Shown here in pieces: positions 5,715 to 7,979 of a stretch of DNA of 64,000 nucleotides (position 1 is its first letter; each line of letters opens with the position of its first letter). The stretch is from NCBI RefSeq assembly GCF_055900595.2, contig NZ_CM148325.1, one strand, 5' to 3'. Both the position numbers and the translations under genes were made by a program. The notes below the pieces were generated by a model. It saw only the letters and a program-made list of their open reading frames with translations, had not been told where the DNA came from and searched no databases.

Positions 5715-5888
5715 CAGTTCCGGCAGTTATTGTGGCGATACCAGATCAGGCAGAGTATGAGCCGGCGCGGAAACTGCTGGGATAACAGCCCAATGGAACG
5801 CTTCTTCAGGAGTCTGAAGAACGAATGGACGCCCCGCTCTTCAACTTTGGTAATACCAAAATCAGACGACGGTGTTATAGGTGCTTGA
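5715..5888 (+). pseudogene. IS3-family transposase OrfB, C-terminal remnant
   Basis: translation ...[22 protein letters not shown]... is the conserved rve-domain tail of IS3-family OrfB. Confidence 0.6.
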
Positions 5889-6538
5889 ACTGAATTTACT
5901 TTGAAAAAATGTAAAAACATTTAAATCATAGCCAGAAGCCGCGATTATTCAGTGCTTCTCATTTTATATTTTCTGCAAATTTATATGTGGTATAAAATAA
6001 CACCCTTGTCATTCAGGTATAAAATATCATCATCGTACAGTAAAGGATATATAAATATAAAATTATACTATTCAAAATATGGTGCATTCTTATTCATGAT
6101 AGGAATACTTAGAACATCATTTTTTCATTGTAGACCATGATTTCGGATTTGAAAAGTTCCTTCCCCAGTAATCTCTAGTTTTTATTCTCAATTCAACCCA
6201 ACTCTTCCCTATACAAACTAAAAAACATTGTTCTATTGATAGATACTTCTCAGTAATCAGATAAAAAACTATAATATTGCTGTGCATGATGTACATATTT
6301 AAAATGTCATGAGTACATCCCTTTTATTTGAAAAACAAACTAAAAGAAATCACTTAAATAAAATGTTTTTATATCGTGGTATTTAAGAAAACTTATATCA
6401 AAAAATAAGATATTGACCTTTATTTAAAATTAGATTAGATTGCAAAGATAAGAATACGTGTGATTATTTCTTTAAACACCTGTAAAAATTTATTAGAGCA
6501 TAGTTATATTATTGAACATTGTATTGCTTAGGTAAGGT

Positions 6539-7798
6539 ATGCTGGTATCTAACTATAATTATGTAATCAGCCGTCGTCGTTTACTGCAAGGTGCGGGCGC
6601 CATGTGGCTATTGAGCGTAAGTCAGGTCAGCCTGGCTGCGGTCAGCCAGGTCGTGGCGGTACGCGTCTGGCCTGCGTCCAGCTACACCCGCGTGACGGTA
6701 GAATCAAATCGTCAGCTGCAATATAAGCAGTTCGCGTTAAGTAACCCTGAACGTGTGGTGGTGGATATCGAAGATGTAAACCTGAACTCGGTACTCAAGG
6801 GGATGGCGGCACAAATTCGTGCAGACGACCCGTTCATCAAGTCGGCGCGCGTCGGGCAATTTGACCCGCAAACCGTACGCATGGTTTTTGAATTAAAGCA
6901 AAACGTAAAACCGCAGCTGTTTGCCCTTGCGCCGGTCGCCGGGTTTAAAGAGCGTCTGGTGATGGACCTCTATCCGGCCAATGCACAGGATATGCAGGAC
7001 CCGCTGCTGGCGCTGCTGGAGGATTACAACAAAGGCGACCTCGAAAAGCAGGTGCCGCCAGCACAAAGTGGTCCACAACCGGGTAAAGCAGGGCGTGATC
7101 GTCCGATTGTCATTATGCTTGACCCCGGCCACGGTGGCGAAGACCCCGGTGCGGTGGGGAAATACAAAACACGCGAAAAAGACGTGGTATTGCAAATAGC
7201 TCGCCGTCTGCGCTCTCTGATCGAAAAAGAGGGTAATATGAAGGTGTACATGACGCGCAATGAAGACATCTTCATTCCGTTGCAAGTGCGTGTAGCAAAA
7301 GCACAGAAACAACGTGCTGACCTTTTTGTTTCTATCCATGCTGATGCCTTTACCAGTCGCCAGCCGAGCGGTTCTTCCGTGTTTGCGCTTTCGACCAAAG
7401 GCGCGACAAGTACTGCGGCAAAATATCTGGCACAAACCCAGAACGCCTCGGACTTGATTGGCGGCGTGAGCAAAAGCGGTGACCGCTATGTCGACCACAC
7501 CATGTTCGATATGGTGCAGTCTCTGACCATTGCCGACAGCCTGAAGTTGGGTAAAGCGGTGCTGAATAAGCTCGGTAAAATCAACAAGCTGCATAAAAAT
7601 CAGGTTGAACAGGCCGGGTTTGCCGTGCTGAAAGCACCTGATATTCCCTCCATTCTGGTCGAAACGGCGTTTATCAGTAACGTTGAGGAAGAGCGCAAAC
7701 TGAAAACGGCAAGATTCCAACAACAAGTGGCAGAATCTATCCTAGAGGGAATTAAAGAGTATTTTTCGGATATAGACGCGTTAGCGAGAAAAGCATAA
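6539..7798 (+). CDS. amiC: N-acetylmuramoyl-L-alanine amidase AmiC-like, Tat signal; first residues differ from the AmiC N-terminus I recall
   Basis: 419-aa ORF with twin-arginine motif [19 protein letters not shown] and amidase_3 regions; preceded by 650 bp of AT-rich DNA without ORFs. Confidence 0.85.
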
Positions 7799-7979
7799 TT
7801 TAAAAATGTTTAATATTCTATGTTCTCGGTCATATTTTATTAATTTGGATGAATATATGCTGTTAGTGCTGTATTCTCCGTTTGGATACACCTTTACCTT
7901 AGCGATATAGTTGTGTTATTCATATATAAATATGCCCCGTTTTAATTCCATGCATTTTTATATCTTGGTCAAATAATGG

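Follow-up and report, generated by a model that had tools for sequence, protein, structure and literature searches.

A second amiC gene on a decayed island in Escherichia coli is a mosaic of two amiC lineages

The stretch of DNA analysed here, a window of 64,000 nucleotides (nt) from contig NZ_CM148325.1 of RefSeq assembly GCF_055900595.2, carries an intact gene of the amiC type among the remains of insertion sequences (IS) on a decayed genomic island. Escherichia coli AmiC (b2817; PDB 4BIN) is a septal N-acetylmuramoyl-L-alanine amidase that is exported by twin-arginine translocation (Tat) and activated by NlpD, and the island protein resembles it in its twin-arginine signal, in its AMIN and amidase_3 domains and in passing the NCBIfam cut-off for AmiC. 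RefSeq gives the island copies no name but plain AmiC (WP_000961389.1, WP_000961390.1 and WP_151577500.1). The island gene differs from its namesake in lying away from the argA/tRNA-Met locus and in being additional to the resident gene there; in having its first 9 and last 29 codons from another lineage, with an AT-rich and foreign region upstream; and in three substitutions within the core of the protein.

The gene lies in a cassette with fragments of IS3-family elements at both boundaries (Table 1), for which we relied on the collinear SCU-115 record, where the position at the locus minus 14121 gives the position in the window. Directly past the left-hand fragment (5691..5834) the composition profile shows GC content falling from about 0.49 to 0.26. 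An earlier note on this DNA, made from the sequence alone, had described AT-rich DNA without open reading frames (ORFs) upstream of the gene, and this is what lies there: between 5836 and 6538 GC is 22-30%, the only ORFs are mechanical, AT-rich frames of 59-62 amino acids (aa), and no Rfam match was found. On the 3' side, about 140 nt of AT-rich DNA give way to IS3 and IS110 remnants and not to tRNA-Met and argA, again as the earlier note had it, and no canonical amiC flank from either the argA side or the tRNA-Met side survives beside the gene.

Our principal observation is that the gene itself is a mosaic, an intact ORF in which two parental lineages meet at two junctions. Its first 9 codons are non-canonical, both in the ORF and when aligned with K-12; the amiC reference taken from NC_000913.3 begins MSGSNTAI, precisely the canonical N-terminus given in the earlier note, and the 5' end of the island gene is not identical to it. 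Uninterrupted nucleotide identity with K-12 runs from 6565 onward, which puts a junction at 6564/6565, where the same note had expected one, with a foreign start and a foreign upstream region on its 5' side. Across the head 18 of 27 nt are mismatched with K-12, compared with 45 of 1145 in the core (6566-7710; 96.1% identity) and 28 of 88 in the tail (68% identity), and each end differs from the core in a Fisher test (head, p = 4e-18; tail, p = 1e-15). There is, then, a second junction on the 3' side, at 7704-7711, beyond the one already proposed. The foreign tail keeps the reading frame, encodes an AmiC-like helix and ends at the homologous stop codon; apart from two extra residues in the head, the protein has the same length as E. 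coli AmiC.

Neither the head nor the tail has a match in the amiC of 80 Enterobacteriaceae, a set drawn from genome representatives and comprising canonical loci only. The tail peptide of AmiC is almost invariant across these 80 loci, and about 10 of its 30 positions are different in the island gene. In nucleotides, the island tail has 57-70% identity to the tails of K-12 and 12 other Enterobacteriaceae, while those 12 are themselves 76-97% identical to the tail of K-12.

A counterpart for both ends was found in a third-party assembly of Klebsiella pneumoniae. When the 120 best full-length homologues were ranked by the similarity of their tails, there was a single outlier, a 417-aa AMIN domain-containing protein (P0048) encoded on contig DAGCYQ010000186.1 (hereafter L100). 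Its head, MLTSNNVISRRR (MLTSNNVI), is of the same type as that of the island gene and its tail is of the same type as that of the island protein; the two proteins also have in common a proline at island position 203. The L100 tail is 88.6% identical in nucleotides to the island tail and 61-76% identical to all other amiC compared (K-12, the resident gene of strain SMS-3-5 and the 80 loci), and the similarity between the island and L100 stops 9 nt past the stop codon. The cores, by contrast, are not alike to the same degree: that of L100 shares 86.9% of its nucleotides with the island core, 87.1% with K-12 and about 80% with Citrobacter and Salmonella, and so is either unconverted or was converted much earlier. 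L100 also lacks the 6-nt insertion found in the head of the island gene. Relative to Escherichia, the ends of the L100 gene are more divergent (tail, 73%) than its core (87%), which, we infer, is what repeated homogenisation of the centre would produce. Judged by these comparisons, L100 represents a separate amiC lineage, which we call amiC2, and it is the head and tail of this lineage that the island gene would have retained.

The amiC2 lineage is rarely encountered. P0048 is a singleton without a close relative among 5.8 billion proteins, and a 40-aa tail query against the same collection returned as its sole match a fragment of the same gene. A phmmer search with a 33-aa tail against 1.84 billion representatives recovered canonical tails only, at 72% identity, and a degenerate DNA scan of the JGI metagenomes for EGIKEYFSD gave 11 matches, two of which were amiC, both belonging to the same E. 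coli island. Neither finished E. coli genomes nor PLSDB contain DNA of the L100 type. Clustering at 90% or 50% buries the island protein within the AmiC cluster.

L100 is a single contig of 5,088 nt, cut 2 nt upstream of the ATG of amiC2, and its other genes set it apart from the island. At 2596-3414, with the amiC2 relative 1.3 kb upstream, there is a 146-aa ORF with a colicin M domain and, convergent with it, a 125-aa YebF/Cmi-like ORF that scores 28-33 bits with the NCBIfam YebF models, under their cut-offs; together they look like a bacteriocin-immunity module. An IS3 element and then a DUF4376 gene follow the pair. Homologues of these neighbouring genes were found neither in the window nor in the rest of the island.

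With both candidate parents in hand, the mosaic can be examined site by site, by asking which parent the island gene follows wherever L100 and K-12 differ. It follows L100 at 6 sites and K-12 at 1 in the head, L100 at 19 and K-12 at 124 in the core, and L100 at 24 and K-12 at 3 in the tail and the first 12 nt past the stop codon (7711-7810); the core set against both ends together (19 vs 124 against 30 vs 4) gives a Fisher p of 7e-17. The 5' crossover interval, bounded by the last L100-type site at 6564 and the first E. coli-type site at 6596, is a 31-nt tract in which L100 and K-12 are identical, the fifth-longest such tract in the gene. On the 3' side, a 6-nt interval between the last E. coli-type site (7704) and the first L100-type site (7711) follows a tract of 52 nt (7652-7703) that is the longest parental identity tract in the gene. 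The crossovers are thus positioned at or after tracts of parental identity, as homologous recombination predicts: similarity to two parental lineages is incongruent from segment to segment, and the breakpoints fall in, or directly after, identity tracts long enough for homologous recombination. We had also considered whether both junctions coincide with nucleotide motifs conserved across the 80 Enterobacteriaceae, but this held for the 3' side only and was replaced by the direct comparison of L100 and K-12 tracts.

A stricter test was confined to 95 sites that are uniform in five Escherichia sequences and different in L100. At 74 of these, 72 of them in the core, the island gene has the Escherichia state, and it has the L100 state at 4 sites in the head, 8 in the tail and 4 isolated sites among the 76 diagnostic sites of the core. 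The isolated sites (7145, which is S203P, 7375, 7405 and 7462) are each flanked by sites in the Escherichia state, and S203P adjoins the GHGGED motif. Four coincidences with L100 among 16 private core changes exceed chance (p = 0.002-0.02), and this suggests that the recipient was of the L100 type and that patchy mismatch repair of the conversion heteroduplex left these four sites unconverted.

The origin of the core is seen in its graded similarity to the genus: beyond K-12, it is 95.5% identical to the resident allele of SMS-3-5, 93.7% to Escherichia sp. MOD1-EC7003, 92.1% to E. whittamii, 89.3% to E. albertii and about 83% to Citrobacter and Salmonella. Its placement within Escherichia is based on three other species; the 80 loci did not include E. 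coli itself, E. fergusonii, E. marmotae or E. ruysiae, nor did the loci returned include E. coli clades I and III-V. Resident alleles taken at regular intervals along the whole E. coli genome ranking are 95.5-96.7% identical to the island core, and the K-12 and SMS-3-5 resident alleles are 97.3% identical to one another. By its site patterns the core belongs with E. coli, on a longer private branch that lies just outside the pair formed by K-12 and SMS-3-5, with 16 private substitutions on the island compared with 5 and 6 in the resident alleles. Three of the 16 are non-synonymous (K61Q, S203P and F337L, in island numbering); of the other 13, which are synonymous, about 10 run from GC to AT, and synonymous sites in the core are unsaturated. 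The donor was not a modern resident allele, because the core is only 95.5% identical to the resident gene of the same genome.

The island gene is a second copy of amiC. In SMS-3-5 (NC_010498.1), the resident gene lies at 3,036,388-3,037,641, adjoining argA and three tRNA-Met genes, and is canonical in head, core and tail; the island copy lies at 3,227,446-3,228,705. The position between argA and the tRNA-Met cluster is therefore separately occupied, and the island gene, which sits among IS fragments, is a paralog or xenolog and not the ortholog. The earlier note had offered a second, xenologous copy as one of its two explanations and had suggested looking near argA; the two loci of SMS-3-5 lend that explanation support, as do the genomes carrying the cassette at large. 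Of 5,426 complete E. coli genomes, 57 contain the 2,021-nt stretch 5880-7900 at full length and at least 99% identity, the 2-kb cassette being conserved at 99.5% or more, and all the listed records with the cassette have amiC in two places (an excess of 58 places over 5,425 records). A search with the core by itself gave the same count as the search with the cassette. Across the 5,426 genomes the AT-rich upstream flank is confined to the 57 with the cassette, where it is always joined to the island amiC, and it was not found among PLSDB plasmids. The island copies differ from one another by 0.05-0.3%, and the recombinant is older than the spread of the island.

Table 1. Features of the island amiC gene, its segments and its surroundings (positions in the window)
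Feature	Position	Strand	Basis or remarks
IS3-family transposase fragment, left cassette boundary	5691..5834	+	RefSeq annotation of collinear SCU-115 record
AT-rich non-coding DNA upstream of island amiC, presumed promoter/regulatory	5836..6538	.	22-30% GC
amiC-type gene, intact, 419 codons	6539..7798	+	Tat signal, AMIN domain and amidase_3 domain; RefSeq WP_000961389.1; ORF list
Head, codons 1-9, foreign L100-type lineage	6539..6564	+	Three-sequence site test; 6-nt insertion relative to both L100 and K-12
5' crossover interval	6565..6595	+	31-nt L100 = K-12 tract encoding twin-arginine motif
Core, E. coli-lineage amiC, codons 10-391 with crossover tracts counted in	6596..7704	+	Identity to Escherichia amiC; diagnostic sites
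3' crossover zone	7652..7710	+	52-nt L100 = K-12 tract 7652-7703, then crossover interval 7705-7710
Tail, last 29 codons and stop, foreign L100-type lineage	7711..7798	+	88.6% nt identity to L100
AT-rich non-coding DNA downstream of island amiC	7799..7941	.	0.30-0.34 GC (about 140 nt)
IS3-family integrase-core fragment, frameshifted, right boundary	7942..8650	-	RefSeq annotation of collinear records
Tyrosine recombinase (integrase) adjoining ynjA	37631-38818	-	

In proposing a history for this gene, we need to explain how a core of E. coli lineage came to lie between two foreign ends on an island. Our contention, to which we would give a probability of about 0.78, is that an amiC2-type xenolog on the now decayed island had its codons 10-391 replaced by E. 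coli-lineage amiC, and that the product of this exchange is a functional, conditionally expressed spare copy; the direction of conversion, the enzymatic activity, the expression and the regulation are what we infer in this account. The recipient would have been a rare mobile xenolog, amiC2, with a head of the form ML.SN..VI and a C-terminal helix of the form ARFQQQ...YFSD..ALARK., and the donor an amiC of the E. coli lineage. A single patch of gene conversion would have overwritten about 1.1 kb, with one crossover in the 31-nt tract encoding the twin-arginine motif and the other directly past the 52-nt tract, and the ends would have remained unconverted because homology runs out just outside them. 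The other explanation in the earlier note was a recombination junction that gave amiC a foreign promoter and start. That 5' junction stands; the 3' end is foreign too, and overwriting the core of an island xenolog is a more economical course than giving an E. coli amiC a new 5' end.

The product is probably a working Tat-exported, AMIN-targeted and NlpD-activated septal peptidoglycan amidase, to judge from the conservation of its sequence. It scores 792.6 bits with the NCBIfam AmiC model (NF038267, amidase_AmiC; cut-off 700), the AmiA and AmiB models remaining under their cut-offs, and it matches the E. coli AmiC structure, PDB 4BIN, with E = 8e-241. In the alignment to 4BIN, which covers residues 36-418, K61Q, S203P and F337L are the sole substitutions before the tail (36-391), and over residues 10-391 the protein is identical to host AmiC at 379 of 382 positions (99.2%). 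The Tat motif and the signal peptide are identical to those of K-12 except in the n-region. Pfam domains PF11741 and PF01520 are precomputed for a near-identical fragment (P0009) and for P0048. We would expect the real differences from AmiC to lie in the n-region of the signal peptide, in the last helix and, above all, in the control region.

Translation would start from a ribosome-binding site like that of amiC: read from the alignment, the 19 nt preceding the island ATG match the ribosome-binding region of K-12 amiC at about 14 positions. Transcription would come from the foreign AT-rich DNA. AT-rich DNA of this kind is usually bound and silenced by H-NS. Upstream control is probably foreign and H-NS-silenced, and repression of this kind would leave the gene to act as a spare copy, expressed conditionally. 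No meaningful repeats were found there. The CpxR box GTAAA-N5-GTAAA is matched with one mismatch at 5911-5925 and again at 6472-6486, the second site being about 55 nt before the ATG; with 9 such sites in the whole window against 4.0 +/- 2.3 expected, they are not convincing, and AT-richness probably explains them.

Whether the gene contributes anything to the cell is where our proposal meets its most serious competitor, namely that it is a silent relic whose ORF is intact only for want of time to decay. We consider this unlikely, although it deserves to be taken seriously: nearly everything around the gene is pseudogenised, island copies only 0.05-0.3% apart leave little time for decay, and upstream DNA as AT-rich as this is typically silenced by H-NS. 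Yet each of the 9 copies examined has an intact ORF, in a neighbourhood where IS genes of equal age have stops and frameshifts and are annotated as pseudogenes. Fewer columns vary in the coding sequence (CDS; 3 of 1260) than in the flank (10 of 847; p = 0.009, indels counted), and the core changes accumulated since divergence are mostly synonymous, 13 vs 3. The island gene differs from the SMS-3-5 island copy at 1 of 1260 nt, where about 3.4 differences would be expected from the island-wide divergence of 0.27%, an underpowered comparison. Private changes in the core are also more often non-synonymous than those in the orthologs, an excess that would favour a relic; the ratio suggests some relaxation of constraint but is still far below neutrality.

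A number of observations weigh against our proposal, and several of these concern selection, for which the evidence is weak: when only substitutions are counted the contrast between CDS and flank falls to p = 0.10, two of the three polymorphisms within the CDS change the encoded residue, and the ratio of private non-synonymous to synonymous changes just mentioned is 3:13 compared with 3:96 in orthologs (p = 0.03). Sigma-70-like sites in the upstream region (6247-6275 and 6413-6441) show no significant enrichment, 10 being found against 5.6 +/- 2.5 expected. The unconverted parent is known from one 5-kb third-party contig, on which the upstream flank is not comparable and the downstream flank is unrelated to that of the island. 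The direction of conversion is read from the location of the gene and from four sites. Finally, the core is 3.3-4.5% removed from every present-day E. coli allele, that of the same genome included (95.5%), which means either that the event is old, or that the donor was an unsampled close relative, or that the island copy has been evolving faster, at about twice the rate.

The converse history, in which an E. coli amiC moved to the island and both its ends were then replaced from an amiC2-type gene, so that the recipient was of the resident type and amiC2 gave the two ends, would leave both junctions and both parental lineages as they are seen here, and neither island flank has a counterpart on L100, the downstream flanks being unrelated and the upstream flank of L100 missing. 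We nevertheless regard it as improbable. It requires two end replacements, or a transposition and a double event, in place of a single patch of conversion; an amiC that had moved from its resident locus has left none of its argA-side or tRNA-Met-side flank beside the gene; and the four L100-state sites in the core are more easily understood as leftovers of an L100-type recipient.

It is very improbable that there was no recombination at all, and that a duplicated E. coli amiC simply drifted at its ends and flanks under relaxed selection and AT-biased mutation. The bias of private synonymous core changes towards AT and the extreme AT-richness of the flanks are what such drift might leave, but divergence leaps from 4% to 32-67% within a few nt at both ends while synonymous sites in the core remain unsaturated, many of the tail differences are in third positions, as is typical of long divergence under constraint, and the occurrence of the same head and tail in an independent gene, that of L100, refutes this account in practice. 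An artefact of assembly or annotation, a chimeric contig joining amiC to unrelated AT-rich DNA, has nothing beyond the unusual composition to recommend it and is refuted by the identical structure in 57 independently finished genomes and two metagenome contigs, so that its probability is negligible.

The process that we propose, conversion of an island xenolog by E. coli-lineage amiC, has well-known analogues. Ectopic gene conversion, or concerted evolution, occurs between bacterial paralogs such as tufA and tufB or the rRNA operons, and the resemblance extends to a homogenised centre, divergent ends near the limits of homology, crossovers at tracts of perfect identity and perhaps a donor copy left unchanged (the SMS-3-5 resident is canonical, but the island core is 95.5% identical to it and the actual donor may belong to another genome). 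It differs in that the partners here are a core housekeeping gene and a horizontally acquired island xenolog, and in that the island core is already about 4% from present-day resident alleles, so that the event is not caught in progress. While ectopic conversion between paralogs is familiar, these partners and the amiC2 lineage appear to be undescribed; full-text literature searches found no published description of either the island copy or the lineage. What the island gene offers is a clean and datable conversion between a core gene and an island xenolog, in which the two parental types and the two crossover tracts can be named, and no new mechanism.

The island itself is at least 39 kb long, consists largely of dead IS elements and abuts ynjA. 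What is left of its cargo comprises iha, a PhoX-family gene, a PerC-family regulator, remnants of an integrative and conjugative element (ICE) and an AT-rich homologue of cytochrome b562. The last is an intact 129-aa protein with a signal peptide (33227-33616, plus strand), very divergent from E. coli CybC and scoring 70.9 bits with NCBIfam NF011632, where the cut-off is 130; it gives the island a further foreign copy of a periplasmic protein. On the minus strand at 34114-34466, overlapping ORFs of 71 aa (with a signal peptide) and 57 aa (YebF family, according to RefSeq) look like a frameshifted yebF-like gene. Between 2761 and 5700 lies a graveyard of nested IS elements: an intact-looking IS21-family istA (2761-3933), a truncated istB and an IS110-family transposase with an internal stop.

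Compared with SCU-115, the island part of the window (1-38999) has no more than 2 mismatches per kb and is 99.9% identical, while the backbone from ynjA onward (39000-61428) has 6-84 mismatches per kb and is 97.5% identical overall. The change is sharp at the integrase/ynjA boundary, and indicates that the decayed island is much younger than the backbones that carry it or has moved between them. SCU-115 lacks a 1.33-kb insertion present at 22253-23581, and SMS-3-5 has extra IS66-family copies elsewhere; island copies differ mainly by gain and loss of IS elements. The island is next to ynjA, which is at 1.84 Mb in K-12, both in the window and in SCU-115, while the SMS-3-5 island is at 3.21-3.25 Mb, about 190 kb from the resident amiC, and adjoins genes that map to 3.0 Mb in K-12. 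SMS-3-5 also has its icd region inverted, at 2.0 Mb, and together these observations suggest a large rearrangement, one endpoint of which is close to the island.

A broader reading of amiC2 can be imagined, which we put forward as speculation and hold to be rather doubtful: that it is a distinct mobile lineage of septal amidases, travelling with bacteriocin or ICE cargo, repeatedly homogenised by the amiC of its hosts and kept by poultry-associated and extraintestinal E. coli as an amidase under separate regulation that aids envelope remodelling or survival in the host. If this were true, the exchange could also reverse, and foreign segments could be carried into a core division gene. More immediately, a second full-length AmiC behind foreign upstream DNA is present in about 1% of finished E. 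coli genomes, among them that of SMS-3-5 and those of many poultry isolates. This is relevant to work with amiC deletions in carrier strains and to amidase dosage inferred from K-12. Since the ortholog and the island copy share a RefSeq name, pangenome analyses, and others in the style of multilocus sequence typing, can merge or confuse the two.

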